Shown one piece after another: positions 2,242 through 48,499 of a DNA stretch of 64,000 nucleotides (position 1 is its first letter; each line of letters begins with the position of its first letter). The DNA is from Myxococcales bacterium (GTDB lineage: Bacteria > Myxococcota_C > UBA6777): NCBI GenBank assembly GCA_020632975.1, contig JACKEL010000004.1:271963-335962 (forward strand). The letters are read 5' to 3'. The position numbers were made by a program, and so were the translations under genes. The notes beneath the pieces were generated by a model that worked only from the letters and a program-made list of their open reading frames with translations, was not told the origin of the DNA and searched no databases.

Positions 2242-2625
2242 GAGCGTCTTTCTTCGGGTGAGGCTGCGGGTGGCTTGCCAAGCAAAAGTATAGAGCGATC
2301 TTCGCGCTTGGGTGGTGGATGTGTTTGGGGGTGGGGTCTTGGGTGGGCAGATCTTTCCCTGTGTTGTAGGGAGTCAGGCTTTGGTGCTTTGTATCTCTCT
2401 GGATTTGATGATCTTTTTTCTTTCCGTTTGACCTTCTCAGGCATCCTTCGTATACAAATGGGTCTCAAAAAGGTGTCACGTGCTTCTCTGGAGCCTTGGC
2501 TTGTGTAAAAAGTCTGGGCTTCTTGGGGTCGCGAGACGTGGCACATCGCATGATGCCATATCGATCTTGTTCGGATAACGCGAACGATCTGTGTATACGC
2601 TAGAGAAATCGAGAGGTACAAAACG

Positions 2626-3369
2626 ATGGCTGGACATAGTAAGTGGGCCAATATTAAGCGCCGCAAAGGCGCGCAAGATGCGAAACGTGGTAAGGTCTTT
2701 ACCAAGATTATCAAAGAGATCAGCGTTGCTGCGAAGATGGGCGGGGGAGATGCAGATGCAAACCCTCGTTTGCGTGCTGCGGTTCTTGCGGCCAAAGCTG
2801 AGAACATGCCCAAAGACAACATCGAGCGGGCAATCAAAAAGGCGACTGGCGCTGACGCTGCGGACTATATTGAGCAGACATTTGAGGGCTACGGCCCTGG
2901 TGGTGTCGCGGTATTCGTCGAAGTGGCGACAGACAACCACAACCGCACAGTGAGCAGCGTGCGCTCTTACTTCAACAAAAGTGGCGGTAGCTTGGGCAAA
3001 GATGGCTGTCTTCAGTTCATCTTTGAGCAAAAAGGTGTGTTTTCCTTCCCCAAAGGCGACCTCGACGAAGAAGAGCTGATGCTTGAGTTGATCGACGCAG
3101 GGGCCGAGGATATCGAGACCGAAGATGGCACTGTGAACGTCACATGCGAAGTCGCGGACTTTGGTAACCTACAAAAGAAACTTTATGAGATGGGGATCGA
3201 GCCCGAAAGCGCGAGCTTGGAGCGTCTTCCCTTGACCATGCAAAAGGTCGATGATCTTGCGATCCTCAAGCCTTTGATGAAGCTCGTGGACCAACTCGAA
3301 GAAGACGACGATGTCCAAAAGGTGTACCACAACCTCGAAGCGGACGATGAGTTGCTAGACCAACTCTAA
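2626..3369 (+). CDS. yebC: YebC/PmpR family DNA-binding regulatory protein
   Basis: N-terminus MAGHSKWANIKRRKGAQDAKRGKVFTKIIKEI is the hallmark YebC signature. Length is 247 aa. GAGAGG lies upstream of the ATG. Confidence 0.9.
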   Translation: MAGHSKWANIKRRKGAQDAKRGKVFTKIIKEISVAAKMGGGDADANPRLRAAVLAAKAENMPKDNIERAIKKATGADAADYIEQTFEGYGPGGVAVFVEVATDNHNRTVSSVRSYFNKSGGSLGKDGCLQFIFEQKGVFSFPKGDLDEEELMLELIDAGAEDIETEDGTVNVTCEVADFGNLQKKLYEMGIEPESASLERLPLTMQKVDDLAILKPLMKLVDQLEEDDDVQKVYHNLEADDELLDQL

Positions 3370-4204: not shown

Positions 4205-5809
4205 TTACCAAGCCGTGCTCTGTTTGCCCCATTCTGGGGGAGATTGAGAGAGGGTGGGCATGGAAGTGGGGGGCGCAGGGAGTTCTCTGTACCAACCCTC
4301 TTGATCGATGGCAGGCGTCGCTTGCGCGGGGGGAAGCTTGGGGAGGCTGCGTTTGATCACAGGTGGGGGCTGTTGTTTTGGAAAGAACGAGAGGGCCCGC
4401 TCACTGAGCGCGACATAGGCCGTGGTGAGGGTACCTTGGGGATCTTTCCAGAGTTGTTCGCGGTAGGTGTACCAAAGACCACCCGTGCTTGTCGCGGAGA
4501 AGAGGAACAAGAAGACCATCAGACGCAGAAGATATCGTGGTTTGGGGAGTTCAGCGTTGAGGCGATCTCGCGTGTCTTGGAAAGGTTGCGCAAAAAGCGA
4601 GGTCTTGCGGGCCCCTGGTGGGGGGAGCGCAGCAGACGAAGTAGAAGACAGTGGCGCTGGGGCGTTTGACTGTGAAGGGGTCGAGATCTCAGAGGACACC
4701 GAGCTTGACTGCGCGGAGAGTTCTTGGGCATCGAACGGTTTCATGTCCAAGGTGGGGGCGGTGGAGATGCGTTCTTTGTTGTTGTCTCCTCCCGTGGTGA
4801 CGGGGGTGGGAAGGACGTGCTTGTTGCCACTGGATTGCAAAGCCATATAAGGCTGGCTTGCATAGGGCGAAGACAGCGGGGAGATCAACGACTGGGTATG
4901 TTTCTTTTCTTCGTTGGCGTGGTGAAGTGCAAGGTCCGTGGGTTCAAGACCGTTGTACAGCGGGGCATTGTCGAGCGCTTTGTCAAAAGCTTGGAGAAGC
5001 TCTTGGCAGGTATTCCAACGCAACGCAGGGTTTTTCTCAAGGCAACGCATCAAGACGTTGTGGCTGGGTTCGTTGAGGTGAAGGAGTGGTGGGGGCGGCT
5101 CGTGCATCAGTTTGAAAAGCAAAGAAGAGGCATCATGGAAAGGGAGCGTGCCCGAGCACATACGATAAAGTAAGACCCCTAGACTGTAGATATCGGCCCG
5201 TTGATCGGCTGTTTTGCTGTCGAGCATTTGTTCGGGGGCGATATAAAGTGGGGTCCCCATGGTGCTGCCTGTGTGGGTGAGGTTGGAGACTTCGAGGACT
5301 TTTGCGATCCCAAAGTCGGTCACACGGGCGGTTGCGGGCCAGGTTTTTTTATCGAGGAGGATGTTGGGTGGTTTCAGGTCGCGGTGCACGATATCTTGTT
5401 CGTGAGCGGCTTGGACCCCAAGGACGATGTCGTGAAAGATCTGATGGACTTGTTCTTGTGGGAGGGGACCTGGATTTCTTTCGAGGTAGGCTTGGAGATC
5501 GCCACCTTCCATCCATTCCATCACAAGGCCAAGAACGCAGTCTTCTTCGAGCATCTGAAGCACGCGTACTACGTTGGGATGTTCGATTTGAGACTGGATG
5601 CTGGCTTCGCGTTCAAAGCGTTGTCGCACCTTGTCTTGGCTGGCCATGTGTTCGTAGAGGATCTTGATGGCGACATGCGCGTCGGTTTCTGTGTCGAGCG
5701 CGCGGTAAAGCCAGGCCATCCCGCCGCTGCCAACACGTTCTTCGATCACATAGCGATCGGCTAATTTTTTGCCTTCAAGCATAGAAGCTGCGCGTTTTTC
5801 GCTCATCAA
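4205..5809 (-). CDS. Ser/Thr protein kinase (Hanks-type) with Pro-rich segment and a transmembrane region
   Basis: VAIK, HRDLKPPNILL, DFGIAKV and APE subdomain motifs. Hydrophobic segment LMVFLFLFSATSTGGLW. Confidence 0.88.
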   Translation of the reverse strand: MMSEKRAASMLEGKKLADRYVIEERVGSGGMAWLYRALDTETDAHVAIKILYEHMASQDKVRQRFEREASIQSQIEHPNVVRVLQMLEEDCVLGLVMEWMEGGDLQAYLERNPGPLPQEQVHQIFHDIVLGVQAAHEQDIVHRDLKPPNILLDKKTWPATARVTDFGIAKVLEVSNLTHTGSTMGTPLYIAPEQMLDSKTADQRADIYSLGVLLYRMCSGTLPFHDASSLLFKLMHEPPPPLLHLNEPSHNVLMRCLEKNPALRWNTCQELLQAFDKALDNAPLYNGLEPTDLALHHANEEKKHTQSLISPLSSPYASQPYMALQSSGNKHVLPTPVTTGGDNNKERISTAPTLDMKPFDAQELSAQSSSVSSEISTPSQSNAPAPLSSTSSAALPPPGARKTSLFAQPFQDTRDRLNAELPKPRYLLRLMVFLFLFSATSTGGLWYTYREQLWKDPQGTLTTAYVALSERALSFFPKQQPPPVIKRSLPKLPPAQATPAIDQEGWYRELPAPPTSMPTLSQSPPEWGKQSTAW

Positions 5810-11477: not shown

Positions 11478-11547
11478 CCTGAATCTACCCTGAATCCCCC
11501 TGGAATCTGGGGTGACCCTCCGCGCCCGCCCGAATCGATCTTGAATT
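11478..11547. promoter_or_regulatory. Helically phased direct repeats CCTGAATC, CCTGAATC, CCTGGAATC (10-11 bp spacing), plus CCCGAATC and CTTGAATT, upstream of the Sel1-repeat gene
   Basis: Seen in the sequence. A GGCGACC-ctttat-GGTCGCC hairpin at 11464-11483 precedes them. Confidence 0.3.
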
Positions 11548-14500
11548 AGACCCGAGTACGGTAGACGCTGTGGATCTCTTGGAGATGGAGAGGGAGAAGG
11601 ACGCTGTCTTCGATGGGTTGTTTGTTTTCGATCAAAGCTTCGTTGCGTGCGAGGAGTTGTTTGATCTCTTCGCGTGTGTACTCGTTGTGTGCTTTGCTGA
11701 ATTGCGTGAATTGCAAGCGGATAAGCTGGGTATTTTCACGCAAAGCATCGCAAAGGGGCTGAAGACCTGCTTGACCGATATCGTTGTGTAAGAGATCCAA
11801 GCTGCGCAGTGTACGATTTTTTTGTAAGAGTTTGGCGATGATCTTGGCGCCTTCGTCTCCAAGGAAGTTTCCAGCCTCGCCGACAGCACCTGTTCCGCGC
11901 ATATATCCGAGATCTAGGAACAACAGAGTTGGATGTTCTGCGAGTGCTTCGACAAGGATCTCTGCGGCTTTTGGGGTCAGTCGGTTGGAGGCCAAGCTCA
12001 AGCGTTCAAGCGACGTATTAGAGGCCAAAGCAGGAGCCAACAAGCGTACACCTTCGTCGCCGAGGCGGTTGCACGAGAGGAAGAGAGTACGCAAGGGCGG
12101 TCCTTGTTCCAAGCAACGTGCGATGATGGGAGCTGACTTGGGCGTCAAAGCGTTGGCGTCTAGGTAGAGGTGACGCAAGCTGCGGTTGGCGCACCAACCC
12201 TCTTCGAGGTTTTGGATACCTTCGTCAAAGACCGCACAGTTCAACAGGTCGAGTACTTCGAGATGTTGATGTTGTTTGAGCAGGTTAGAAAGCGGTATCA
12301 TCCCTTCAGGGCGCAGCGGGTTTCGTTTGAGCCACAGATGACGGACTTGGGGGTCTTCTGCGATGGCTTCGGTCACAGCTTGCAAACCCTCTGCGGTGAT
12401 CTCGTTTCCTGCGATGTACCAACAGTCGAGTTGAGAGCGACCACTGCGGATATACTCGGCGATTTGGCGCGCTCCGCCATCGCCCACGATGTTGTTTCCT
12501 AGCAACAAGCGTTTTACGCGTGAGCTGTGCTGCATCGCACCAAGCAAAGGACCGATCCCTTCGGGTCCAACGACTTGTTTGCATAGGTCGAGGCGTCCAT
12601 CAGGCAACAAGGTTCCACGGGTGAATTGAAGCATCTCAGCGACAGGGCTGTCGTTGTTGAGCCAGTCAAGCAAGGGTTCCAACTCTTCGTTTGCGCAAGG
12701 CAAGACGGGTTCTGGCGCAGGGTGCAAGATGGGCGCAGGGATGGGCTCTTGCTCAGGGTTGGTACGTGAACGGCTTTGTTCGTAAAGTTGTTTGATGCGC
12801 TCGTTGCGTTGGCGATCTGCGAAGTCCAGCATCAGGTGGTCGAGGGCTTTTCGCAGATCGCGGACAGTGTGGCGATACTCCATGTAGCGGTAGCCTTTGG
12901 CTTTTTTGAGACCTTCTGGGGTCCAAGGCTGGCTCATCGAGTCTTCTGTTGGCAAGGGCAACAAAGCCAAAGCGATATCGCAAGCGAGATGGCAGAGTTT
13001 GTCCACGGCGCTTCTGCGTTTGGGGGCGTAGTGCGCGCAGTCGCTGGGCCAAGTCAGGCTTTCGAGTGTGTGAGGATCGCTTTCGTCGATGGAGAGATTT
13101 TGTTCTAGGATCTCTTTGTCTTCAGTGAGTTGCTTGGCATAGAGCGTCACGAGATGTTGATGCAAAGCCTGCAAAGGCTCTACCCAAGGATGGATGCCTT
13201 CGGATGTGCCCTGTTCTTCGAGTGCGACGCGCGTTTGCGCAGCTTCAAAAGCGAGGTCATTCATCCATGACCAGCCCAGTTCGTAGGGCAACATGCGGAA
13301 AGCTTCTTGAAGGGCCGATTCTTCGGGCTGTTGGGTTTCTTGCGCATAGAGCCACAAAGCCACCAGATAACGATACGCGGGATCTCTGCTTTCGTGATGT
13401 TGTTCCAAGTGGCGTGCGATGGCAAACACATCGTCAGCGCTAAGGTTTGCAGGGAGTGAGGACGCCAAGCCCTGTTGCAATGCTTGGTGATAAGCTGCGA
13501 CTTCTGGGGTGGTTTCTGCCAACTGAGGCCAGGATGTTTCCCAAGCGCTTGAGGGAGTGGGCAAGATCTGAAACTTTTGTAAGAAGATCTTGATGTCCTC
13601 TAAAGGCCAACGGTCGGGGACAAAGTGCCCACCACTATGTTGGACGATGACAGGATCTTGGAAGCACTCGGCCAAGGCGAGCGTGCGTTCTGGGTCCACC
13701 AAGATGTCATTCGCCCCAACGATGTGGAGTGAGGGCAGTGCGATCGAGTGTGGTTGGAGCAAGCCTTGGTGCGCTTGGGCACGCGAAGGAAAGCCTGAGA
13801 TACAGATCACAAAGCGCATCGACAAGCCAAGTTGTTCTGCCATGGCCGCAGCAAGGCCCGTGAAGGCACCCCCTTGGCTAAAGCCGAGGATGCCATCAAA
13901 AGGCCCGTAAAGTTCGTCCATCTGCTTGATATAAGCGAAGGAAAGCTCGACGCCTTCGTACACGCTGTTGTCTTCGTCCGCATTCCACCAGCAGCGTTGG
14001 TGCTCTGTGTCTTGGAGTCGACCGAAAGCTGCGAGCACAGCGTTTCGCACTTCGCCTTTTGGATTGTAGGGAAGGGGTGCGTTGGCGTAGATGATCTCTG
14101 CGGTGCCTTCGAGGGCGCGGCGGAGTTTGCGGGTTCGTGCGCGCATGATGCGGGCATTTTGGCGGAAGCTATGCAACACAAGAAGCTTGAGTGGTGTTGC
14201 TTCTTGGCCGTTGCTTGGGCTTTTCGACGCTTGAGGGAGCAACACATCAGGCTGCTTTGTTAGCACATCTTCTTGCACCTGTTGTTTGTCAGGCTGCGAT
14301 AGATTCGCAGGATTCGAGGGTTCCGAAGTGGACTCGGAGGTCTGCTGTTTGTCTTGTGTTTGTACTGAGCGCATAAATCCATACCTCTTGGTTTCTAAGA
14401 ACGCGGTTTCTTCGGGCGTGGTTGTGCGTCCCAAAAGTGCGTTGCGATAAGGATAACGACCAAATGCTTCTAAGATCTCGACATGTTGTTGGCCCGCCCG

Positions 14501-15061
14501 CAGCATCCGCTTAAATCGTTTGCGTTGGGCGGGAGGACTGTCTTCGACAAGGCGGGTCTTGTAAGCCACGGCTTGTCGCACCATCTCGATATCTTCGGCG
14601 TGTTCAAGGGCAAAGTAGAAAAAGACCCGTTCTGCAGGGGCGACGTGCTGGTCCATCTCGTGGTGGATGGCGTACAACGCGATCTCTTGGGCGATATCGT
14701 CGTATTGAAACATTGCTGCGTGACCACGGTGGATATGTCGTGGAAACTGATCCAACAACAGCACCAATGCGAGACAGCCGTGTGCGGTGTGTCGCAGAGC
14801 ATCCAGTTTGCTTTGGGCTGCGGCTTCGACGAGGGGTTGAAAACGCGACTGGATCTCGGCGTCGATCGCGGGACCTGCACGGAACCAAAGCTCTGAAGGT
14901 GGTGTGTAATCGTGTGCTTGCGGATCGCTTTGTTCGCCAAACCAAAAACGAAGGACTTGGTCGGCGTCTTTGCCCAGTTGGCCTGTGGGGAGGGTTCGTC
15001 CAAAGAGGTATGTTTGTTTTGGTATGGAAGGCTCCTTGGGTGATGTTTCTGAAGCAGTCAT
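11546..15061 (-). CDS. Multidomain protein: N-terminal DUF924-like domain, FSH1-type serine hydrolase domain, central unknown region, and C-terminal RNI-like leucine-rich repeats
   Basis: DUF924-like LLLDQFPRHIHRG block. FSH1 LVLHSFRQNARI with GFSQGG nucleophile elbow. More than 10 ~28-aa LRRs of ribonuclease-inhibitor type (LxxLxLxxNxIGDEGxxxLAxAL). Confidence 0.7.
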   Translation of the reverse strand: MTASETSPKEPSIPKQTYLFGRTLPTGQLGKDADQVLRFWFGEQSDPQAHDYTPPSELWFRAGPAIDAEIQSRFQPLVEAAAQSKLDALRHTAHGCLALVLLLDQFPRHIHRGHAAMFQYDDIAQEIALYAIHHEMDQHVAPAERVFFYFALEHAEDIEMVRQAVAYKTRLVEDSPPAQRKRFKRMLRAGQQHVEILEAFGRYPYRNALLGRTTTPEETAFLETKRYGFMRSVQTQDKQQTSESTSEPSNPANLSQPDKQQVQEDVLTKQPDVLLPQASKSPSNGQEATPLKLLVLHSFRQNARIMRARTRKLRRALEGTAEIIYANAPLPYNPKGEVRNAVLAAFGRLQDTEHQRCWWNADEDNSVYEGVELSFAYIKQMDELYGPFDGILGFSQGGAFTGLAAAMAEQLGLSMRFVICISGFPSRAQAHQGLLQPHSIALPSLHIVGANDILVDPERTLALAECFQDPVIVQHSGGHFVPDRWPLEDIKIFLQKFQILPTPSSAWETSWPQLAETTPEVAAYHQALQQGLASSLPANLSADDVFAIARHLEQHHESRDPAYRYLVALWLYAQETQQPEESALQEAFRMLPYELGWSWMNDLAFEAAQTRVALEEQGTSEGIHPWVEPLQALHQHLVTLYAKQLTEDKEILEQNLSIDESDPHTLESLTWPSDCAHYAPKRRSAVDKLCHLACDIALALLPLPTEDSMSQPWTPEGLKKAKGYRYMEYRHTVRDLRKALDHLMLDFADRQRNERIKQLYEQSRSRTNPEQEPIPAPILHPAPEPVLPCANEELEPLLDWLNNDSPVAEMLQFTRGTLLPDGRLDLCKQVVGPEGIGPLLGAMQHSSRVKRLLLGNNIVGDGGARQIAEYIRSGRSQLDCWYIAGNEITAEGLQAVTEAIAEDPQVRHLWLKRNPLRPEGMIPLSNLLKQHQHLEVLDLLNCAVFDEGIQNLEEGWCANRSLRHLYLDANALTPKSAPIIARCLEQGPPLRTLFLSCNRLGDEGVRLLAPALASNTSLERLSLASNRLTPKAAEILVEALAEHPTLLFLDLGYMRGTGAVGEAGNFLGDEGAKIIAKLLQKNRTLRSLDLLHNDIGQAGLQPLCDALRENTQLIRLQFTQFSKAHNEYTREEIKQLLARNEALIENKQPIEDSVLLPLHLQEIHSVYRTRV

Positions 15062-15254: not shown

Positions 15255-17606
15255 TCAGGGTTTGGGGAGGTTCTTGATCGCGTTGGTGACGATCTGGGGG
15301 GTAAGGATCTGGGGAAGGACGCGGAAAGAACCGTCTTTTCCATTAAAGAGGACGTAGAGTGGGACACCACTGCGCTTGAATTGTTCGAGGGTTTGGGTGA
15401 TCTCTTTGTTTCCATCGGTCCAGTCGCCAACGACGTAATGCACGCCGCGTTCTTGGAGGGCTTTGCGCACATCGTCGCTGCGAAGGGCAAGGCGTTCATT
15501 GGCTTTACAAGTGATGCACCAGTCTGCCGTGAAGTTCAGGAATATATTGGCTTTTTGCTTGAGGAGCCCCTCGAGTTTCTTTCGTGTGAAGGCCGTTTTT
15601 TTGAGGGTCTTGGAAGGTGTCTTGGCCCGTTTTGTGGTGGTACGAGGGGCGTTTGCTGCGGAGGCACGGCCTTCTTGGAAGGCTTCTTGAAGTGCGGTGC
15701 GTTGGGCATCTCTGTGATCGATTTGGGCTTGGTATTGGTTGGGGATGCCCCACACAAGGGTACACAAGACGATCACGACAGCGGCGCGACCTGCCCAACG
15801 GCGTTTGTTGCTACCAAAAGCCGTGATGTGTAAAAGCCATCCAGAAAAGGCGACCAGAAGGGCGCAGACGAGCGTGATCAAGATGCCTCGTGGCCCAGCG
15901 ATGGAGGTGAGGACCCACGCCAACCAGATCGCCGCGCCATAAAGCGGGAAAGCCATGATCTGTTTGAAGGTTTCCATCCAAGCACCTGGGCGCGGCAAGA
16001 TGCGCAGTGTGGAAGGATTCAACGAAAGAAGCAGGTAGGGAAAGGACATCCCCAAGCCCAACATCGCGAAGATCAAAAGCCCGACCCAAGGGGGTTGCAG
16101 AAGCGCGAAAGCGATCGCGCCTCCCATAAATGGCGCGGTACATGGCGTGGCGACGATCGTTGCGAGGAAGCCCGAGAAGAAAGAGCCCATGTATCCGCCT
16201 TGATCGGCGAGCTGGCTTCCTACATTCATCAGAGAGTTCCCCACCTCAAAAAGTCCTGAGAGGCTGAGTCCCATCCCAAAAAACAGCAAGATCAAAGGCA
16301 AGAGCACCGCTGCGGATTGAAGCTGATAACCCCATCCCAAGGAGCTTTCGAGGCCGACGAGCTTTTGGAGGGCGGGGATACGTAGCAGAAACAAGATCCC
16401 TGAAAGGCCCAAGAAGGAAAGCAAGACACCTGCTGTAAAAGCCCATCCATGGCGCTTTACGACTTGAGGCTGGGACTTGGCTTGCTCGACAAAGTGCAGA
16501 AGCTTGATCGAGAGCACGGGAAAAACGCAAGGCATCAAGTTGAGTAACATCCCGCCAAGGAAGGCAAACAAAAGCGCGAACCACACGGATTGAAGGGCTT
16601 CTTGATCCTTTCCTCCTTTGGCGAGCAGGCGATCCAGGCTGCTTCCTTGGGGCGAGGATGTGGGCGGCTTTGGCGACTTGGTCGTTGCGATCTTTGCGAT
16701 GGATGCGGAGGTTGGGCGGCTTGTGGCTTTGGCAAGAGGGACACTCGTTTGCGCACTTACCTCGTAACTGAGAAGTGGCTTGTTGGGTTCTCTTGAGACG
16801 ATCAGACCGCGTAGTTTGGTGCGTTCGGGCGTGTGATACTCGTTCTTTTCAACAGCGATGCGCAAGGTCTTGCCATGCCATGTTATCTTTTGTGGCGCAG
16901 CGTTGGAGATGATCGAGTGATCGATGGGATAAAAGGCGAGGTTTTTTCTGTTCGCAAAAGCGCTAGGAAGATCGGTGAGATCGATTTGGACATCATCTTC
17001 GCCGATGCGAAGGACGCCCTTGGTTTGGGGCCATGCGATGGGGGTTTGTGCGCGGGTTGTTGCGAAAAGTGCCTTTTGTGCGAGATGTTGGCTGGTGGGG
17101 GCAGAGGTTGGTGTCCCTGTGCTTTGTACGGGCAAAGTTAGAGACAGCGATCCGCTTCCTTTGATGCACTCTTCTTTGCACACCAGCCATGTCAAATCGA
17201 CGGATAATTGGACTTGTTTGGCTTTCAGATCTTTGGGAGGAGTGATCTTGATAGGAAGCAACACGCGTTCTTCATAGCCGAAGTTGGCGAGGATGCGAAC
17301 GCGGATCAGCTTGGGGGTGGGCCATTGAATCGACCCTGCTTGAAAGCCCGAAGGTAGCTTCCATGTGAGTTTGGGAGGGACGCCAGAGTCCCCAGCATTA
17401 CGCCAGTAAGTATGCCAGTGTTCCTCGAGATCTTGTTGGATGCCGACCCAGAAAGGCTCACCCGGTCGGATGGTTGGGGTTTCACTGATCAAAGAAAGTT
17501 GGATATGTGGGGCTTTGAGAGGGGCGGCGGAGGCATGGAGGATTGGTTGGGAAAAGAGCCACAAGCCCAAGACACCACAAGCGAAGAATCGCAAGATTCG
17601 AGTCAT
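15255..17606 (-). CDS. dsbD: Thiol:disulfide interchange protein DsbD (protein-disulfide reductase)
   Basis: N-terminal DsbD-alpha-like domain after a signal peptide, central multi-TM CcdA-like core, and C-terminal thioredoxin domain with WCITCK (CxxC). Start assigned to the internal ATG (MTRILRFF, signal-like) rather than the ORF-track 17705. Confidence 0.85.
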   Translation of the reverse strand: MTRILRFFACGVLGLWLFSQPILHASAAPLKAPHIQLSLISETPTIRPGEPFWVGIQQDLEEHWHTYWRNAGDSGVPPKLTWKLPSGFQAGSIQWPTPKLIRVRILANFGYEERVLLPIKITPPKDLKAKQVQLSVDLTWLVCKEECIKGSGSLSLTLPVQSTGTPTSAPTSQHLAQKALFATTRAQTPIAWPQTKGVLRIGEDDVQIDLTDLPSAFANRKNLAFYPIDHSIISNAAPQKITWHGKTLRIAVEKNEYHTPERTKLRGLIVSREPNKPLLSYEVSAQTSVPLAKATSRPTSASIAKIATTKSPKPPTSSPQGSSLDRLLAKGGKDQEALQSVWFALLFAFLGGMLLNLMPCVFPVLSIKLLHFVEQAKSQPQVVKRHGWAFTAGVLLSFLGLSGILFLLRIPALQKLVGLESSLGWGYQLQSAAVLLPLILLFFGMGLSLSGLFEVGNSLMNVGSQLADQGGYMGSFFSGFLATIVATPCTAPFMGGAIAFALLQPPWVGLLIFAMLGLGMSFPYLLLSLNPSTLRILPRPGAWMETFKQIMAFPLYGAAIWLAWVLTSIAGPRGILITLVCALLVAFSGWLLHITAFGSNKRRWAGRAAVVIVLCTLVWGIPNQYQAQIDHRDAQRTALQEAFQEGRASAANAPRTTTKRAKTPSKTLKKTAFTRKKLEGLLKQKANIFLNFTADWCITCKANERLALRSDDVRKALQERGVHYVVGDWTDGNKEITQTLEQFKRSGVPLYVLFNGKDGSFRVLPQILTPQIVTNAIKNLPKP

Positions 17607-17808
17607 CAAAAAGATCTCCCTTGTCGATATTAAGAAAGAGGATGCTTTCTTGGAGAGAACACCTGTTGCTTGCGTTGGATTCCCAAGTGACAGAGAAGGT
17701 TGCATTCGGCCGAAAAGAAAGCCCTTGCAGGCGAGTGGGAATTGGTGTCATCTCATAGAGATACGCGCTGTTACCAAGCGTCAAAAGAGAAGCATGGAGG
17801 AAGAAAAG

Positions 17809-20565
17809 ATGGTTTGGCGTGTGCTCTTGAAAAGATATCTAGTGTGGGGATCTTTGTTGTTGTTATGGGCCTTTCCGCGTTTGGCCTTTGCGCAACAAGG
17901 CTCGAACTGTCAGCCGCCCAACTTGATGGTGATTATTGATGCATCCAACAGTATGGGCAACAACAACAAGATCGCGAGCCAAGCTTGTACGACCAAAGCA
18001 TCTTGTAACCCGATCCCTTTCACCTTTCAGCCCGCCCCAGGGACGACACCTCGCTATGATTATTCGTGCAATGCCAACAAAAAGTGCTTGTACACGCGTT
18101 GGGATATCGCGAGGAATGCGCTAAAAGAAGTCGCCTATCAGTACGGAGGGACCGCCGCAAACAACTACAGCGATCGCAAAGCGCGCTTTGGTTTGGTGGC
18201 CTTCAACGATCTTGCGACTTTGGAAGCGACGATCACCGCCAACCCACCAAAGATGGCCAACCGTTTGGATGCCAAGACCCTGGCTTATGGAACGCGATTT
18301 ACCCGCGCTTTTACGGAGGCACGCAACCATCTTCAAAGTGTGATCAACAGCGACTCCGTGGCAAAACGCCCGACACATATCTTGTTTATGACGGATGGTG
18401 CGCCCACAGACGGGTGTGTCGATGCGCCCAATATGGTCCGCGATATGTACCAAGGGACGGGCACATTTGCCTTGAAAGATACCAAAGGCAATATTTATCC
18501 AGTCAAGACCTATGTGATCGGATTTGGCTCAGGGATCAACGCCAGCGCCAACAACTGCCTAACCAAGATGGCCGATCTTGGAGGAACCAAGCGCTGTGAC
18601 CCAAGCATCGCTGGGTGTGTGGCTTACTTTTTTGCGGACAACGCTGTCCAACTCAAGGGCGCGATGGATGCAATCGTCGATAACGCAACCCAAGAAGCTT
18701 GCGATGGGATCGACAACGACTGTGATGGAAAAACCGACGAAGATTACAAAGACCTCGGTCAAAGCTGCGATGTGGGCGTTGGGGAGTGCAAACGCACAGG
18801 GACGAAAGCTTGTCGCCCCAATGGTAGCGGGACACGTTGTGATATCGCTGCGGGCACACCTGCCGCAGAGATCTGCGATGGCAAAGACAACGACTGTGAT
18901 GGAAAAACCGATGAAGACTTCCCCACGCTGGGTTCGCCTTGCCAAGCGGGTGTCGGATCTTGTCGTAACAGCGGGGTCTTAGCGTGTCGTCCTGATGGCT
19001 TGTCGACGATTTGTAATGCTGTTCCTTTGCAGCCACAGCCTGAGGTCTGCGATGGCAAAGACAACGACTGCAACGGACAAATCGACGACAATCTCACGCA
19101 AGGTTGCTCCACAGCTTGCGGGACGGGCGTTGAGTTTTGCCAAGGTGGAAAGTGGGTCGGTTGTACCGCGCCCAAGACAGAAGCCGAGGTCTGTGATGGC
19201 CGAGACAACGACTGTAACGGGACTGTCGATGATGGTCTCAAGCGTCCTTGCACCACAAGCTGCGGAAGTGGCGAAGAAACCTGCGTGAATGGAAACTGGG
19301 TATTTTGTGATGCGCCCAAAGCAGAGCCTGAGATCTGTGATGGCAAAGACAACGACTGCGACGGAAAAACCGACGAAGGAATCGTTCCTCGTGCTTGCCA
19401 AGGAGATTGTGGGACGGGGACCGCACAGTGCGTCAATGGCGCTTATACAGGTTGCGACGGACCCAAGCCCGAAACAGAGGTCTGCGATGGCAAAGACAAC
19501 GACTGCAACGGACAGATCGACGATGGCCTAGAACGCGACTGCAAAAGCCTTTGTGGTGATGGAAAAGAACTCTGTAAGAATGGGTCGTGGGAAACCTGCA
19601 ACGCACCTCAACCCAAAACAGAGATCTGCGATGGCCAAGACAACGATTGCAACGGCAAGATCGACGACAACGCAACTTGCCCCACAGGTGAAAGCTGCGT
19701 CGAAGGCCTCTGTCGTCGTCCTTGTCGCAATGGTGAGTGTCCAACAGCGTTCCAATGCCGCGAAGGATTTTGTTTCTCCACGACCTGCGACAACATCACT
19801 TGTCCAGGCGATCTCGTTTGCAAAAGCGGCCAGTGTATCGACGCTTGCATTGGTGTGACTTGCCCTGATCAAGAAGTCTGTAAAGCTGGAAAGTGCGTGG
19901 AAAACAATTGTTTTGGTTTGGGATGTCCCACAGGGGAAGTCTGTAAAGCCGGACAGTGCGGGGTTGATCCTTGTGCTACTGTGACTTGCTCAAGTGACCA
20001 ATACTGCCGCGAGGGTTCTTGTGTCGCTGTTTGTAAGACAGATTCTTGCGCACCAGGCGAAGGATGCTCTGAAGGAAAGTGCGTACCCGATCCTTGTGCG
20101 GGTGTTTCTTGTGCGAACTTCCAGCGTTGCGTGAATGGAGCTTGCCAAGCGGACCCCTGTTTTGAAGTGACATGCCCCAATGGTCGGGTATGTGCTGATG
20201 GCAAGTGCCAAGAAGACCCATGTCTCGGCATCCAGTGCCCCGCAGGTTCAAGCTGTGTCGAAGGGGTTTGCAAGCAACCCTCTCGTCCACCCTTGCCAGA
20301 ACCCGTTGTAGAGGGCGTCACAGAGCCCGGCGATGAGATCGCCTCTGATGCAGAAGGGACGATCTCAAATGATGCCTCGCAACTCGATGATCCTACAGGA
20401 GAAAAAGTCTTCGGCGAGTCCAACTCTCCCAGTGAACGCTATGGAAGCGGCCAAGCCCCTGGATGTAGCTGTCAAACAGGGAATACGCCGCTGTCTGGAG
20501 GCATCTTGTTGTTCTTGTTGGTGTTCTTGAGAGTGCGCAGACGTCAACCTCAACGCGCTGAATAA
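17809..20565 (+). CDS. Secreted giant Cys-rich protein: vWA domain, seven MopE-type metal-binding repeats, C-x-G-x-C module array, MYXO-CTERM anchor
   Basis: Signal peptide MVWRVLLKRYLVWGSLLLLWAFPRLAFA after a GGAGG RBS. vWA MIDAS-like LMVIIDASNSMG. Seven copies of E[IV]CDG.DNDC[DN]G..D[ED]. C-terminal GCSCQTG...ILLFLLVFLRVRRRQ fits the MYXO-CTERM pattern. Confidence 0.82.
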   Translation: MVWRVLLKRYLVWGSLLLLWAFPRLAFAQQGSNCQPPNLMVIIDASNSMGNNNKIASQACTTKASCNPIPFTFQPAPGTTPRYDYSCNANKKCLYTRWDIARNALKEVAYQYGGTAANNYSDRKARFGLVAFNDLATLEATITANPPKMANRLDAKTLAYGTRFTRAFTEARNHLQSVINSDSVAKRPTHILFMTDGAPTDGCVDAPNMVRDMYQGTGTFALKDTKGNIYPVKTYVIGFGSGINASANNCLTKMADLGGTKRCDPSIAGCVAYFFADNAVQLKGAMDAIVDNATQEACDGIDNDCDGKTDEDYKDLGQSCDVGVGECKRTGTKACRPNGSGTRCDIAAGTPAAEICDGKDNDCDGKTDEDFPTLGSPCQAGVGSCRNSGVLACRPDGLSTICNAVPLQPQPEVCDGKDNDCNGQIDDNLTQGCSTACGTGVEFCQGGKWVGCTAPKTEAEVCDGRDNDCNGTVDDGLKRPCTTSCGSGEETCVNGNWVFCDAPKAEPEICDGKDNDCDGKTDEGIVPRACQGDCGTGTAQCVNGAYTGCDGPKPETEVCDGKDNDCNGQIDDGLERDCKSLCGDGKELCKNGSWETCNAPQPKTEICDGQDNDCNGKIDDNATCPTGESCVEGLCRRPCRNGECPTAFQCREGFCFSTTCDNITCPGDLVCKSGQCIDACIGVTCPDQEVCKAGKCVENNCFGLGCPTGEVCKAGQCGVDPCATVTCSSDQYCREGSCVAVCKTDSCAPGEGCSEGKCVPDPCAGVSCANFQRCVNGACQADPCFEVTCPNGRVCADGKCQEDPCLGIQCPAGSSCVEGVCKQPSRPPLPEPVVEGVTEPGDEIASDAEGTISNDASQLDDPTGEKVFGESNSPSERYGSGQAPGCSCQTGNTPLSGGILLFLLVFLRVRRRQPQRAE
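18700..19700 (+). repeat. Intragenic tandem DNA repeats (~140-150 bp period) encoding the MopE-type modules
   Basis: The string tgcgatggcaaagacaacgactg(c/t)(g/a)a(c/t)gg recurs at about 18877, 19051, 19330, 19480 and 19630. A closely related variant occurs at 19189. Confidence 0.6.
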
Positions 20566-20625
20566 CACGGTGGTTTCGTGGTCTTGGGCTTTTAGAGGCC
20601 CAAACCTTTTGGGGGAGGGGGTCGC

Positions 20626-21288
20626 TTAGGTTTCTGTGGTAGGGGGAGATGGGAGAGGGCGTTCTGAACGTCGCGCCAACCAAGGCAACGCCAGAAAAGA
20701 GAACAACAACAGCAAGATAAGTGGATAGAGTTGGTGGGGCGGCTTACCAAAGGTCGCGAAGATCTGCAATCCACACATCCCACCAACGAGAAAAAGCATC
20801 TTTCGACGCTGTGTTGGAGGACAAGCCCACCACAGAAACAAGCCCACACTCAACGCAAAAAGCACCATCTCTAGGGAAAATGCCAACATCGGATAATTCC
20901 ACAAGCCAAATCCCACTTTGTGGCCCGGATAGAGCGAGAGATCGGGGCGATGGACGAGGAGATCCAACAACCAGTGTGAACTCACGGTGATCCCAACAAC
21001 GCTTGCTTCTTTCCACGATAGCCGCAGAAAAGTAAGCGACTTGGCCAAAAGCATCGCCCCAAGTCCCCAAAGCAACGTCGCCAACAGACTATGCGTGTAG
21101 GGCATGTGGTAGAGGTCGAACGGATTGGAGCGCAAACCTGGGACGATACGGACTTTTTCGACCCCTGTTAGCACAAAGGCTGCCCAAAAGATATCGACAA
21201 ACTGGGCCGCTAAAAAGAGCACCCAAAGAGGTATCTTGGGTTGGGCAGACTTGGCGACAAAAGCCGCGCTGTAATGGCCGATATACAT
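20626..21288 (-). CDS. Integral membrane protein, possibly a membrane-bound metal-dependent hydrolase (YdjM/DUF457-like)
   Basis: 5-6 hydrophobic helices and His-rich motifs (HYSAAF, HMPYTHS). Start set at the internal MYIGH Met. Confidence 0.4.
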   Translation of the reverse strand: MYIGHYSAAFVAKSAQPKIPLWVLFLAAQFVDIFWAAFVLTGVEKVRIVPGLRSNPFDLYHMPYTHSLLATLLWGLGAMLLAKSLTFLRLSWKEASVVGITVSSHWLLDLLVHRPDLSLYPGHKVGFGLWNYPMLAFSLEMVLFALSVGLFLWWACPPTQRRKMLFLVGGMCGLQIFATFGKPPHQLYPLILLLLFSFLALPWLARRSERPLPSPPTTET

Positions 21289-21292
21289 CTTC

Positions 21293-22090
21293 TTATCTCC
21301 CTGGGGGAGGAGAAAGTTTGGGTGATGCGTGGCCTTGAAGGACTTTGAGGTAGGCTTGCACAGTCGCATAAAGCCCCATGTCGATGGCATCTGCGATCAG
21401 TGCGTGTCCAATGGAGACTTCAAGGAGGTTGGGGACGCGTGCGCAAAAAGCCCCAAGGTTCTGCAAGTTGAGGTCGTGCCCTGCATTGATCCCAAGCCCC
21501 AACTCTGCGGCGCGTTGGGCGGCTTGGGCGTAGGTCTCTAGTTGTGTGCCCATGTTCGTTTGCCCAAAAGAAGCCGCATAAGGCTCAGTGTAAAGCTCGA
21601 TGCGATCCACACCAAGTTCGGCTGCGCGTTCGATTTGTTCGATGTCTGGGTCCATAAAGAGACTGACGCGCATCCCATCTTCTTTGAAAGCCTCAACCAC
21701 AGGTCTCAAACGCTCACTTGTGGTGCGCAGATCCCAGCCATGATCAGAGGTCGAAGCATTTGGATCATCGGGTACAAGGGTGCATTGGTGCGGACGGATC
21801 TTGCGAACAAGCTCAAACCACGCCGCTTTTTCGTCCGTTTGGGCATGGACAAATGGATTTCCTTCGATGTTGTATTCGATATGGGGATACTGCTTTAGGA
21901 GTCCTTCAAGCTCGAAGGCATCGGTCTTTCGGATGTGTCTCTCATCTGGTCTTGGATGGATCGTGATGCCGTGGGCGCCCGCTGCGATGCAAGTTTGCGC
22001 AGCGTGTAGGACATTGGGGATGTTGAGAGGGCGCGAGTTTCGAATAAATGCGATCTTGTTCACATTGACGCTGAGTTGGGTCACGAGCAT
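21293..22090 (-). CDS. pdxJ: Pyridoxine 5'-phosphate synthase PdxJ
   Basis: LSVNVNKIAFIRNSR aligns with the PdxJ N-terminus LGVNIDHIATLRNAR. GITIHPRPDERHI aligns with GITVHLREDRRHI. TIM-barrel length. Start chosen by alignment to E. coli PdxJ. Confidence 0.85.
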   Translation of the reverse strand: MLVTQLSVNVNKIAFIRNSRPLNIPNVLHAAQTCIAAGAHGITIHPRPDERHIRKTDAFELEGLLKQYPHIEYNIEGNPFVHAQTDEKAAWFELVRKIRPHQCTLVPDDPNASTSDHGWDLRTTSERLRPVVEAFKEDGMRVSLFMDPDIEQIERAAELGVDRIELYTEPYAASFGQTNMGTQLETYAQAAQRAAELGLGINAGHDLNLQNLGAFCARVPNLLEVSIGHALIADAIDMGLYATVQAYLKVLQGHASPKLSPPPGR

Positions 22091-34147: not shown

Positions 34148-35935
34148 TTAGAACTTGATGAGGCCAAACATCCACGCAAGTACTGCAGCGGAAGCGAGAA
34201 GTCCTACAACGACGGATATATACAACACCATCTTGTTGTCAGGGGGTGGTGTAGAAAGTGTGTCGTCGTTGATATCGATGGATGGGATCGGGCCGACGGT
34301 GCTGATCTCTGCGTCTGTGGAGGCTTGTGTCTCTGGGGGGAGTGGGGCTGGTGCGCCTGGCTGTGTTTGGGAGTCTGGATCTTCGAAAGGCTCGGGTGTT
34401 GGGGTTTGTGGCGCATGGGATGGCGTTGTATGAAAGGGGCTGGATTTGGTGTGGTGTGGGATCGAAGGTGGTGGTGTTTGAGAGATAAAGGCGTCCATCT
34501 CCGCGGAGGCAGCCTCGGCTGTTGGGCTGATGGGAGAGAGCACTTCGCTTGGTGGTGCGGGGGTGCTTGTTGCTGAGACAGCCTCAGGGAGCGTGCCAGG
34601 CTCTGGGGTAAATGTCAGGGGAGAAAAGCGGGAGGTGGCTTCGTCGAGGAACAGGACATTCATTTTTGCGTCGTCGTCGAAAGCCACGGGTAAATCGGGA
34701 TAATCCGTCATTGAGGTGGGGTCGTCATCTTTGGGGACCCCACCTGCGATGGTTGCGTCTTCTCCCTCGAAAGCGTTGGGGAGTTGAACGGGAGAGAGAA
34801 GCCCTGAAGAAGCGAATGCGTCGAGCGCAGGATTGAAGGGGCGGGTTTGGTCATCTGCGAGACCTTCGATCTTGATCTTGAGCACGCCGTGGGAGCTGGG
34901 GACTTCGTCGTCGAAGAACTGGGAAGCTTCGTCGAGGTCGAGTTCGTTGTCTTTGTGGAATGGGTCGTCTTTGATCTTGATGCGTTGGACCCAAAGAGAG
35001 AGGGCTTCTTTGTTTTCATCAGGAGACAAGGTCTCGTTGGGGAGTTCTTCGTCCAAGACGCGTTGCAGTGCGCGTTTGAGTGCATTGGGGTTGGAAAAGC
35101 GGTCATCCGGGTGTTTTTCGAGCAAGCACAAAGCCACCTCTTGGAGCAACACGGGGATGTCCTGCTTTTTGGAGATCATGGGGGGAGGAGGCTCAACTTG
35201 GATGGCGCGCAAAGTCTCTACCAAAGAAACCCTTGGGTAAGGAGGTTGTCCCACACACATCTCGTAAAGGATGGTTCCTAGCGCGAAAAGCTCTGAGGAA
35301 GGATCGCGATAGTGCGAGGTGACTTGTTCAGGGGAGAGGTAGGTCGGGTGCCCTTCGAGGAGACCATTTTCGGTTTCATAGCGAGGTCGGAAGATCTTGG
35401 CGACCCCAAAGTCAAGCAGGTTGATGGTACCGTTTGTGTCGATCCCGATGTGTTCGGGGGTGAGGTTGCCATGCAGATACTGCTCGCTGGGATCGGCATA
35501 GGCTGAGCGCTTCTCATTTTTGTTGTAAGCGTACTCAAGGGCATCACAGAGGCCAAGGATGACACGTGCAGCGTGGTACCAAGGGATCGGGATGTCATAC
35601 TGGGCGAGGTGGGAGAACATCAACTGTCGAAGTGTGTGTCCAGAGAAAAACGGCGTGATGAGGTAGAAGTACTCTTTCCAATGTCCGTGTTGGATCGGTA
35701 AGAAAAGAGTCGTGTGATCGAGGGCTTTTAATCGATTGAGTTCTTTCTCTAGGACTTGTTCTAACTTTGCGTCCTGTAAGTGCTTTTTTTGGATAAGTCG
35801 CAGCAGCACCTCTGCGGGTGGCTTATCTTTGCGGAAGTATTGCGCGCTCCACAGTTGGATTTGATTTTTGGGGGCGAGCGGTTTCCCTAAGATAACTTCG
35901 CCATCGGCAAGAGAGTCGCCAGCTTTTAAGGTCAT
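34148..35935 (-). CDS. Ser/Thr protein kinase with Pro/Thr-rich linker and C-terminal tail-anchor TM helix
   Basis: HGNLTPEHI, DFGVAKIF and YLSPEQ motifs. C-terminus MVLYISVVVGLLASAAVLAWMFGLIKF. Confidence 0.85.
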   Translation of the reverse strand: MTLKAGDSLADGEVILGKPLAPKNQIQLWSAQYFRKDKPPAEVLLRLIQKKHLQDAKLEQVLEKELNRLKALDHTTLFLPIQHGHWKEYFYLITPFFSGHTLRQLMFSHLAQYDIPIPWYHAARVILGLCDALEYAYNKNEKRSAYADPSEQYLHGNLTPEHIGIDTNGTINLLDFGVAKIFRPRYETENGLLEGHPTYLSPEQVTSHYRDPSSELFALGTILYEMCVGQPPYPRVSLVETLRAIQVEPPPPMISKKQDIPVLLQEVALCLLEKHPDDRFSNPNALKRALQRVLDEELPNETLSPDENKEALSLWVQRIKIKDDPFHKDNELDLDEASQFFDDEVPSSHGVLKIKIEGLADDQTRPFNPALDAFASSGLLSPVQLPNAFEGEDATIAGGVPKDDDPTSMTDYPDLPVAFDDDAKMNVLFLDEATSRFSPLTFTPEPGTLPEAVSATSTPAPPSEVLSPISPTAEAASAEMDAFISQTPPPSIPHHTKSSPFHTTPSHAPQTPTPEPFEDPDSQTQPGAPAPLPPETQASTDAEISTVGPIPSIDINDDTLSTPPPDNKMVLYISVVVGLLASAAVLAWMFGLIKF

Positions 35936-35939
35936 GATG

Positions 35940-38900
35940 TCACCGCTTGATTAGAACAAGGATGATGGTCACAAGGGTCAAGATGACGATGATGTTACCA
36001 CCGATCCAGAGCCACTTGAGACGCTGCTTTCTTTTCTGGAGTCGTTCAAGAAGTTTGACATCAAGGACCGTAAAGTCACCGCCACTGTCATTGTGGGGCT
36101 CTTTGGCGATCTCGTCGAGTTCGAGAGAGAACTCAGGTTGTGATGGTGTGGCGCCTTGCAACATCTGGTAGTACTCAGGAGGGGGCTTGTTTGGGTCATA
36201 AGCGCCCCCTGCGAGTGGAGAAAAGCCTTGGCGTAGCGTAGCGGCTTCTTCGTCTACCACTGGGAGTTGTTGGGGTTCTATGGGCGCATCAAAGCGGTAA
36301 GAAAGGGCGGGGATCTCCCCTTGAGACATGGAGACGACGTTACCAAAAACTTCGTCATCAGCGTTTCTCAGGGAAGGGATGCGGGGGGATGAGACCCGCA
36401 GAGCGGTTGGAGCATCTGCAAAGTCATCGTCGGGATCGTTGGTTTGGTAGATGTTTGTGACGCCTTCGTCGTCTTCGTTCGCTTGATGGGGCAGCAAGAT
36501 GCCCGTAGGAGCGAACTCATCATCATCGTCGAAGGCGTGGCTTGACGCGATGACCTCGTCGGGATCTTGTGGAGCTTGGGGGACAGGCTGAATCGTGGTG
36601 GATTCGCCCCCAAAGTCGCTGTCTTCTGGCTCGTAAAGGTCTCGTGGGCCAGGCAGCAGGGTATCTTCTTTGTGTCTGAGCTTGAACTGAAGATCCTCGA
36701 TCGAAAGCTCATCCGAAAGCAGCAAAGAGGATGTTCGTTGGCGATGTGGCGGCTCGGCGAGTTCTTCCACCAACTGATACGTGGATGAAACCTCCGCACC
36801 CACCGCGTCTCTCTGAAGCAAGGGTGGGAAAAAGGCTTCTGCATCTTCAGGCGAGATACCTTCGATCAGAGGGGCTGTTGCTTGGAAAGCCAACTCTGAG
36901 GACTCTTTTCTCTCACTTTTCTCGGAAGGTTCGATGAGAGGAACCTGAAGTTCTGCGGAGTCTTGCCCATGCAACGGCGTTTTTTCGAGCGGTGCAGCGT
37001 CGAGGCCCGAGCGACTTTCGGGGCCTGGCTCGTCAGATGGTTGCGTTGCTGGCTTGAGCGTGTCGGGCACTGCGAGCATAGAGGACACAGTTGCTGCGCT
37101 GGAGGACTCATCTTCCACAGGAGGGGCGGTTTGTTCTTTGTCTTCTGAGGAGTCCGCCGTTTTGGTCAGGGCATCGCTCGGGGAGATATCGATCTTTTTG
37201 TCGCTGGCAAGGGGGGCAGAGCTTTGTGAACTTGCGGGTGATGCAAGCTTTTCGTCGTCCGCAGGCTTTTCGCCAAATAGAGAAAGTGCGGGTTTTGCGT
37301 CGTTTGTGGTGAGGGGTTGGAATGCGAGAGGAGCCGAGAAAGCGTCCAAGAAAGAGAGCGGATCATCTTCGGGCAGATCGTCGCTGCTGAGAGAGTCGAG
37401 GATCGCGGAAGATGGCGACTTGACAGGGACAGGCTTTTCTTTGGGCAGGGGCGGGGCTGGCAAAGGATCGTCAAACAGCCCTGGCAAGGGGGCGTTGAGC
37501 AGGTCTGGATTGGCTTCGAGCGCAGAGGCTAGGTCTTCCGTCTCTTCATTGGAGAAAGAGACGGGCATCGCGTTGGGATCAGTTGGTTTGGTGTCGATGT
37601 GACGAGGCCCAGAAGGGTTCTTGACAGGAGGTTCAGAGGCAACATAACCTAGCAAGATCTGTTGGAGTTTGTCTTGCTCGCTGATGGGCATCACGGTCTC
37701 GCGGAGCGTTTGTTCTGTGGGGATGCCCACGACTGCGCCAGGCGGTAGATGCGATGGGGAGCTTATCTCTGTCGAAGAAGGACGATGTTGTGTTTCAGTG
37801 AGGGAACTCTCGCTCGATGGGGTGCCTTGGGCGGCTTTGCGGACTTCCTCAAGCGGGGCGGACATGGTGGGTTCCATGGCCTCGTCATGGTTTTCAGGGA
37901 AGAGGGTCGCAAGCGGCGCGGCAGGTTGGCGCATGGGGTTGGGGGTTTGGTTCCCATACATCATCAATGGCACAGGAGAAGGCGTATAGCCTGGCCGCAC
38001 CATGTCCGTGGCAGCGAGGGGTTCGCTGGGTCGTTCGGGTTCGTGAGGGGGAGGAGCCTCTGTAGGCTGCGCGTAGCGTTGCGCGAAGTTGAGCAAGCTA
38101 TCGCGGTGGAAGCCTGAGGGCGCGTCTTCTCGGATAATCTTTTCGAGGGCGCGTTGAACTTGGCGGGCGTCCTCGTAGCGGTCGTCAGGCTTTTTCTCAA
38201 GAAGTTTGAGGACAAGATTATCGAAAGACTCTGGTACGCGCGGGGCTCTTTTTCTGAGGGGTTCAGGGTGATTTTCAAGGATGGAGTAGATGAGGGTGGG
38301 GAGCATATCGCCGAGGAAAGGGCGTTGTCCCGTGCATAGCTCGTACATAATGATGCCGAGTGCGAAGAGGTCAGAGCGAAGATCTTGAGGACGCGCTGTG
38401 ATCTGTTCGGGCGACATGTAAGAAGGTGTGCCCTTGATGATACCCGTTTGCGTTTTATGCTGGACGTTAGAGGCTTTGGCCATCCCAAAGTCGATGATCT
38501 TGATAAAGCCATCCACAGTGAGGAGCATATTTTCGGGTTTGAGGTCGCGGTGGATCAGGTGAAGTGCTTGTCCATCGCGGCCTTTGCTTGTGTGGGCATA
38601 ATGCAGCCCTTTGCATACACCTAGCATCATCTGGGCGACCAGCGTCCAAGGGATCGGCTGGCCCGTCTTGCGAACATGCGTTTCCAAGATCCGACCGAGA
38701 TCTTGCCCGCGGATCAACTCCATCACGATGTAGTCGAGTTCGTTGTGTTGCCCGATGTCGTAGATCTCGACGATATTGGGGTGTTGGAGTTGGGCTGCGA
38801 GATGGGCTTCGTTCAGGAAGATCTGGTGAACTTTTGGATTTTCAAGCGCCTTGGCGTGGACGATCTTGATAACAACGTCTTTTGAAAAGCCGCCCACACC

Positions 38901-48400: not shown

Positions 48401-48499
48401 GCAGAGGTGGGGGGTTTCAAGCCCGCTCGTCTCATTCGTGTTGGAAAGCTCGACGACGTACAGAAAAACGAAGCGAGAACTTTGGTTGGATGGGGTCTG

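Follow-up and report, generated by a model that had tools for sequence, protein, structure and literature searches.

What does a gene with seven tandem repeats encode: a modular protein displayed at the cell surface, or a locus whose repeated DNA lets the product vary between strains? The question is raised by a gene at 17809..20565 (+ strand) of a 64,000-nt stretch, hereafter the window, from the genome of a Myxococcales bacterium (GenBank assembly GCA_020632975.1, contig JACKEL010000004.1, positions 271,963 to 335,962). An earlier note, made from the letters of this DNA, had described a giant secreted protein with a VWA domain, seven MopE repeats and a MYXO-CTERM tail, encoded by near-identical DNA units. 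Judging from sequence, structure models and analogy, we consider it likely that the product is a cell-surface, adhesin-like protein of uncultured Myxococcota, exported by Sec, sorted by a myxosortase and the T2SS (type II secretion system) and anchored by a lipid, in which a VWA head for a putative ligand is carried on a Cys-rich stalk.

A gene for a six-part protein

The window holds an open reading frame (ORF) on the + strand at 17440..20565. The start within it at ATG 17809, preferred to 17440 in the earlier note, holds: a Shine-Dalgarno-like GGAGG (17796..17800, +), read directly from the sequence, precedes this ATG by an 8-nt spacer; an NCBI protein identical across 918/918 residues (MCB9640784.1 / MCB9642681.1) begins at the same ATG; and in P0002 and P0003, orthologues found in other metagenomes, the start codon lies at the corresponding place. 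Since the divergent neighbour dsbD is annotated as 15255..17606 (−), translation from 17440 would run through 167 nt of it, an overlap that had also been suspected. The coding sequence at 17809..20565 (+, stop included), taken from the ORF list and the identical NCBI protein, specifies 918 aa, for which ‘giant’ was an overstatement. The ORF is real and encodes an already annotated, ordinary myxobacterial surface-type protein; the title of the NCBI record is ‘MAG: VWA domain-containing protein [Myxococcales bacterium]’ (MAG, metagenome-assembled genome). The identical protein is encoded on contig JACKEK010000045.1 of assembly GCA_020633035.1, with the gene at position 7851 there and at 17809 in the window, which reaches ∼9.96 kb past the end of that contig. 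Around the gene we saw no promoter or terminator signals beyond chance.

The protein has six parts, in this order: signal peptide, VWA head, MopE-type units, hairpin repeats, acidic linker and MYXO-CTERM. The Sec-type signal peptide MVWRVLLKRYLVWGSLLLLWAFPRLAFA (17809..17892, +) was recognized by inspection from its basic n-region, hydrophobic core and AxA site, with predicted cleavage between AFA and QQ; an equivalent leader is kept in the orthologues.

The VWA head (17893..18693, +), already claimed in the earlier note, was confirmed by Pfam, metal-site residues and fold. Scores of the whole protein pass the cutoffs of both PF00092 (VWA; 32.5 bits, cutoff 23.8) and PF13519 (32.7 bits, cutoff 27), and the isolated head domain reaches 38.0 and 37.8 bits, respectively. 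The metal-ion-dependent adhesion site (MIDAS), DxSxS...T...D, is complete: D44, S46 and S48 (codons at 17938, 17944 and 17950), T162 (18292) and D196 (18394). In an alignment of 42 homologues D44, S46, S48 and D196 are invariant, with T162 conserved in at least 90%. The AlphaFold2 (AF2) model of residues 29-300 has a mean predicted local distance difference test score (pLDDT) of 89.7 and a predicted template modelling score (pTM) of 0.90, and both the model and Foldseek point to a Rossmann-like alpha/beta VWA fold. With the head model Foldseek found 335 PDB chains at E ≤ 0.001; the top 50 listed were almost all VWA domains. The best matches, at E 3e-9 to 1e-8 and 14-17% identity, were VWA domains of adhesins: Plasmodium TRAP (4f1j), P. 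gingivalis Mfa5 (6tnj), mussel PTMP1 (4cn9) and P. fluorescens LapA (9no5). By sequence (phmmer, whole protein versus PDB sequences) there were chance matches only (E about 0.9). The label ‘eukaryote-like’ that had been given to the modules is not specific, the VWA fold matching adhesins of bacteria (Mfa5, LapA, BatB) and of eukaryotes alike and PF11617 being a bacterial motif.

Directly behind the DxSxS loop of the MIDAS sit 46 additional residues, four of them Cys (17956..18093, +). This insertion is specific for a subclade: among the 42 aligned homologues it is restricted to our protein, P0002, P0003, P0004 and P0023. The insertion probably shapes the ligand-binding face of the head.

The first part of the stalk (18694..19683, +) contains the seven MopE-type, Asp-rich motifs of the earlier note, which Pfam recovers as seven stretches of PF11617 (Cu-binding_MopE) with 122 bits for the whole protein (cutoff 27, E=1.1e-35); single units alone score 22.6-23.6 bits, under the cutoff. 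The motifs start at 18700, 18874, 19048, 19192, 19336, 19483 and 19627. They belong to six complete six-Cys units, two of 58 aa followed by units of 48, 48, 49 and 48 aa, the seventh being a motif only; with 39 Cys and 66 Asp+Glu in all, the segment is devoid of His. AF2 models each unit as a loop and a small three-stranded sheet (pLDDT about 85-91).

Acidic loops of the D-x-D-x-D-G type, clamped by disulfides and set in bead-like tandem arrays, are a feature of low-density lipoprotein (LDL)-receptor class A, thrombospondin type 3 and epidermal growth factor (EGF) modules. By analogy, Ca2+ is the probable ligand of the CDGxDNDCxGxxD loops. When the 48-aa unit was searched as a profile, its sole match in PDB was xanthusin-1 (7unx), not significant at E=1.4; the part that matches this small Cys-rich peptide weakly is C-x3-CGxGxxxC-x2-G-x4-C, in the second half of the 48-aa units (19048-19626).

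A second array, overlooked in the earlier note, follows at aa 626-826 (19684..20286, +). From Cys spacing, alignment and AF2 it is made up of beta-hairpin repeats, about ten in number, each of 21 aa with four Cys (C-x4-C-x5-C-x4-C-x3/4), with a regular Cys spacing of 5, 5 (or 4), 5, 6; in the model the 21-residue units are hairpins of paired short strands. The sole Pfam signal there is PF23416 (DUF7107), just below the cutoff (24.2 bits, cutoff 24.6). All Cys of this array, as indeed all Cys of the stalk, are invariant in 35 homologues. The linker that comes next (57 aa; 20287..20457, +), also overlooked before, is acidic, rich in Pro, Ser and Gly and predicted to be disordered from its composition (13 D+E, 2 K+R, 7 Pro, no Cys) and from its lack of conservation in alignments; over its first eight residues, the only part modelled, pLDDT drops to about 70 and from there to 41.

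The AF2 model of the stalk (residues 290-834) combines a pLDDT of 84.3 with a pTM of 0.33 and therefore has well-defined beads in no fixed overall shape, the result to be expected of a string of beads. With this model Foldseek gave weak matches to megalin and Pfs25/28. Cys residues number 86 in the mature ectodomain; this count, being even, would allow up to 43 disulfides.

The protein ends in a MYXO-CTERM sorting signal (20458..20562, +), identified with NCBIfam models. Its tail PGCSCQTGNTPLSGGILLFLLVFLRVRRRQPQRAE reads PGCSC-QTGNTPLSG-GILLFLLVFL-RVRRRQPQRAE, i.e. GCSC, a spacer, the helix GGILLFLLVFL and the Arg cluster RVRRRQ; at the extreme C-terminus it has the tripartite form described for such signals, a Cys motif (often GCxC), a transmembrane (TM) helix without charge or Pro and an Arg-rich cluster (Haft preprint; PMC11980579). 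The model TIGR03382 (GC_trans_RRR, now a MYXO-CTERM sorting domain; cutoff 15.85) passes with 18.2 bits for the whole protein and 25.4 bits for the last 45 aa; TIGR03901.2 (cutoff 20) passes only with these last 45 aa alone (23.8 bits). Judged by sequence, the match overall is borderline but positive. The tails of P0004, a paralogue in the same genome, and of the orthologue P0002 also pass, and among 120 listed matches (of 4785) endings of the GCxC + TM + RRR kind are typical of the proteins that share the stalk. Hidden Markov model searches, on which the earlier note had made its MopE and MYXO-CTERM assignments depend, uphold both through PF11617 and TIGR03382.

Probable display at the surface and the other functions considered

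A known protein of this kind is TraA of Myxococcus xanthus, with a signal sequence, a PA14 head, a Cys-rich stalk and MYXO-CTERM, anchored at the surface via MrtX and the T2SS (PMC3325183, PMC11980579). On this model Sec would export our protein, and the C-terminal helix would hold it in the inner membrane while its disulfides form; the Cys of the tail would be lipidated and a myxosortase (a CPBP protease of the MrtX type) would cut off the helix; the T2SS would then carry the protein, once folded, to the external side of the outer membrane, to be anchored there by its lipid (PMC11980579). Sorting by a dedicated Myxococcota-type system, as the earlier note had suggested, is consistent with the model of MrtX myxosortase and T2SS (PMC11980579). 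The anatomy, by analogy with TraA, suggests that the two Cys-rich arrays would form a rigid stalk keeping the VWA head off the cell, and that the head may bind a putative protein or glycan ligand via its MIDAS cation.

Several observations weigh against this picture of an anchored adhesin. Lipidation of the Cys, C-terminal cleavage and T2SS-dependent display have been shown only for TraA and MXAN_4924 (PMC11980579), and the 64-kb window has no gene for a myxosortase (CPBP protease) or for the T2SS; nor does it encode a second MYXO-CTERM protein. The score of TIGR03901.2 for the whole protein, 16.4 bits, is under its cutoff. As to the stalk, the Foldseek match to megalin is not significant (E=0.12), and Ca2+ binding by the MopE-type loop is drawn from a likeness to LDL-A and thrombospondin type 3 motifs. 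Finally, shedding of some TraA and MXAN_4924 into the medium has been reported (PMC11980579), so that anchoring may be incomplete.

The same shedding would fit a protein of the matrix or the medium which its tail holds only transiently and which, once released, cross-links polymers through its VWA head and Cys-rich repeats. The disordered linker ahead of the tag (20287-20457) would be an obvious target for a protease, and one of the structural neighbours of the head, PTMP1, is a matrix protein of mussel byssus. However, the family as a whole keeps the GCxC + TM + RRR tail, which points to selection on the anchor, and removal of MYXO-CTERM abolishes the function of TraA (PMC11980579); we therefore regard release as the unlikely fate of this protein. 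A different function is called up by the family name PF11617, Cu-binding_MopE: with seven matches, the motifs might capture copper at the surface, as in MopE of Methylococcus capsulatus, and the Asp-rich N-terminal stretch of MopE* has indeed been linked to a weak binding of Cu(II) (PMC3423442). Yet MopE* binds Cu(I) with high affinity through His132, His203 and kynurenine-130 in another domain (PMC3423442), while in our protein the PF11617 matches span only profile positions 13-30 of a short motif, the stalk (aa 296-826) has no histidine anywhere, and no PDB sequence, that of MopE included, matches either the protein or the unit profile. Copper handling is thus very improbable, and the name ‘Cu-binding_MopE’ should not be taken as copper binding here; MopE itself is stabilised by Ca2+ (PMC3423442).

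Divergence and number of the repeat units

One more alternative concerns the DNA. In a locus of the contingency type, near-identical units would recombine or slip, and the length of the stalk would differ between strains; the earlier note had reported near-identical tandem DNA units of ∼145 bp and predicted copy-number variation from them. Two facts could be put on the side of this explanation. The number of units spans 5 to 24 in the family, and the gene does have one long exact repeat: 38 nt at 19042-19079 and again at 19477-19514, coding for EVCDGKDNDCNGQ within units 3 and 6. The copies are 435 nt apart and in frame, and at this length, the largest of any exact DNA repeat in the gene, could in principle just permit a rare three-unit deletion; we saw no allele with such a deletion. 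Near-identical units, though, are absent. Tandem Repeats Finder returned 0 rows for 17000-21500; units 1 to 6 measure 174, 174, 144, 144, 147 and 144 nt, with pairwise DNA identity of 53-69%, and they are alike at the DNA level (66-91%) only in a core of 44-71 nt that encodes CDGxDNDCxGxxD.

Counting the units in relatives, as had been proposed, gave no change of copy number. In the orthologues P0002 (74% identical) and P0003 (68%) all seven motifs recur, likewise spaced at 58, 58, 48, 48, 49 and 48, and the seven units are also kept in a second MAG: the protein is 100% identical in two related MAGs (locus tags H6727 and H6728), which differ elsewhere (990 aa in P0038 versus 991 aa in P0121). 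Compared with its positional counterpart in P0002 or P0003, a unit is 60-84% identical in amino acids and 62-78% in DNA; compared with other units of the same protein, it is 38-60% identical in amino acids. Units are closer to their orthologous counterparts than to paralogous units, and therefore there is no concerted evolution; neither the orthologues nor the two MAGs gave any sign of homogenisation or copy-number change at the locus. The range of 5 to 24 comes solely from distant homologues and from paralogues of old origin, so that change of copy number is slow across the family and not a property of this locus.

With diverged units and one-to-one orthologues, the contingency explanation is largely refuted already, and we find it hardly credible. 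What repeats here is a set of old protein modules, each conserved in its own right, not a device for variation at the DNA level. Tandem repeats in a protein need not mean recombinogenic DNA.

Neighbours, shared stalk and known systems

The anchored, adhesin-like protein that we prefer has as its divergent neighbour the gene for a thiol:disulfide interchange protein, dsbD, identified by Pfam (DsbD_N / DsbD_TM / Thioredoxin_7). The same pairing is seen at the orthologous locus L002 (dsbD at 566-3091, −; DsbD 67% identical) and not at L003. A protein with 88 Cys may have a loose functional link to disulfide isomerisation by DsbD; as the pairing is kept at one of these loci and not at the other, the link is suggestive only.

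Other genes of the window can be described briefly. The convergent downstream neighbour (20626-21288, −) encodes a YdjM-like inner-membrane protein (PF04307, 23.5 bits, cutoff 29). At 11546-15061 (−) there is a fusion protein of 1171 aa made of DUF924 (189 bits), an FSH1 serine hydrolase (166 bits) and a C-terminal leucine-rich repeat of the ribonuclease inhibitor (RNI) type (LRR_6), a combination unusual in bacteria. We also found three genes for eukaryote-like Ser/Thr protein kinases (4208-5809, 34151-35935 and 35943-39056, all −), a cytochrome P450 (27887-29296), a tandem cyclic nucleotide monophosphate (cNMP)-binding protein (42144-43580), secA (43763-46435), tetratricopeptide repeat (TPR) proteins and ExbB/TonB, all of it typical Myxococcota content. 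Two adjacent ORFs, 46559-48397 (+, 613 aa) and 48407-50626 (+, 740 aa), had no Pfam match at E ≤ 1e-5.

The family is large: 4785 matching proteins, mostly from MAGs of Myxococcota or ‘Deltaproteobacteria’. At least three paralogues with GCxC + TM + RRR-type tails are present in the same genome, to which P0083 and P0038 were assigned by their locus tags and accession ranges: in P0004 a VWA head is combined with at least 13 units, P0083 has a beta-propeller head, and P0038 has MopE units with no recognised head. Residues 371-893 of our protein are colinear with residues 504-1060 of P0083 (46% identity, E=1e-157); stalk, linker and tail thus make up one cassette that recurs with different heads in front of it, and by sequence this sharing fits a generic display stalk. 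In a profile search of genome contigs with alignment A1 the matches listed were dominated by the ubiquitous CDGxDNDC pattern, and two distant loci were confirmed.

One could speculate further that the cassette (the last run of 48-49-aa MopE-type units with its recurrent spacing of 48, 48, 49, 48, then the hairpins of four Cys, about ten of them, the acidic linker and MYXO-CTERM) is an undescribed, structurally unsolved display stalk, reused by an uncultured Myxococcota lineage behind a VWA head, a beta-propeller or no recognisable Pfam head, and that the VWA head with its four-Cys insertion would be a TraA-like recognition receptor for prey, kin or matrix. We hold this to be doubtful. Taken alone the finding is minor, one more predicted MYXO-CTERM surface protein whose record already names the VWA domain; the shared stalk cassette with no solved structure is an only modestly new point, and a reasonable structural target for learning how Gram-negative bacteria set their surface proteins off from the outer membrane.

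How does the protein compare with systems already known? With the VWA domains of adhesins (Mfa5, the vWFA domain of LapA, Plasmodium TRAP, integrin I domains) the head has in common the alpha/beta fold and a complete MIDAS, with Foldseek E of 3e-9 to 1e-7 and, for single-domain VWA chains, target-normalised template modelling scores of 0.65-0.75. Unlike them, it has a four-Cys insertion after the first MIDAS loop, and it shares with them only 10-18% sequence identity, with no significant PDB match by sequence. The anchoring differs as well, by MYXO-CTERM in our protein versus a type V pilus, the type I secretion system or a TM domain in the known VWA adhesins. VWA systems of the PilY1-like, BatA/B-like and MoxR-associated kinds were considered and rejected, as the gene has neither a pilin nor a Bat nor an AAA+ MoxR gene as a neighbour and the architecture is unlike theirs.

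MopE of M. capsulatus, and PF11617 in general, share with our protein the short Asp-rich motif of the CDGxDNDCDGxxDE type. Here, however, this motif is the first third of a six-Cys tandem module of 48-58 aa, and the MopE* copper domain with its His/His/kynurenine site is lacking, as is any His in the repeats. In their disulfide-clamped acidic loops in bead-like tandem the units resemble the arrays of LDL-A, thrombospondin type 3 and EGF modules.

The closest likeness in layout is to TraA and MXAN_4924 of M. xanthus: a type I signal sequence, a ligand-binding head at the N-terminus, a long stalk of Cys-rich repeats, a disordered segment, which in TraA has been described beside MYXO-CTERM, and MYXO-CTERM itself (PMC3325183, PMC11980579). 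The parts are different ones. The head is a VWA domain with MIDAS versus PA14 in TraA, and the stalk is built of PF11617-type units and 21-aa four-Cys hairpins versus TIGR04201 repeats. Because PA14 and TIGR04201 were undetected in Pfam and NCBIfam scans at E ≤ 1 to 10, we place the protein outside the TraA family; unlike traA, moreover, its gene has no traB-like neighbour and gives no evidence of polymorphism. With the layout in common and the parts exchanged, the protein would still be expected to follow the same sorting route as TraA and MXAN_4924.

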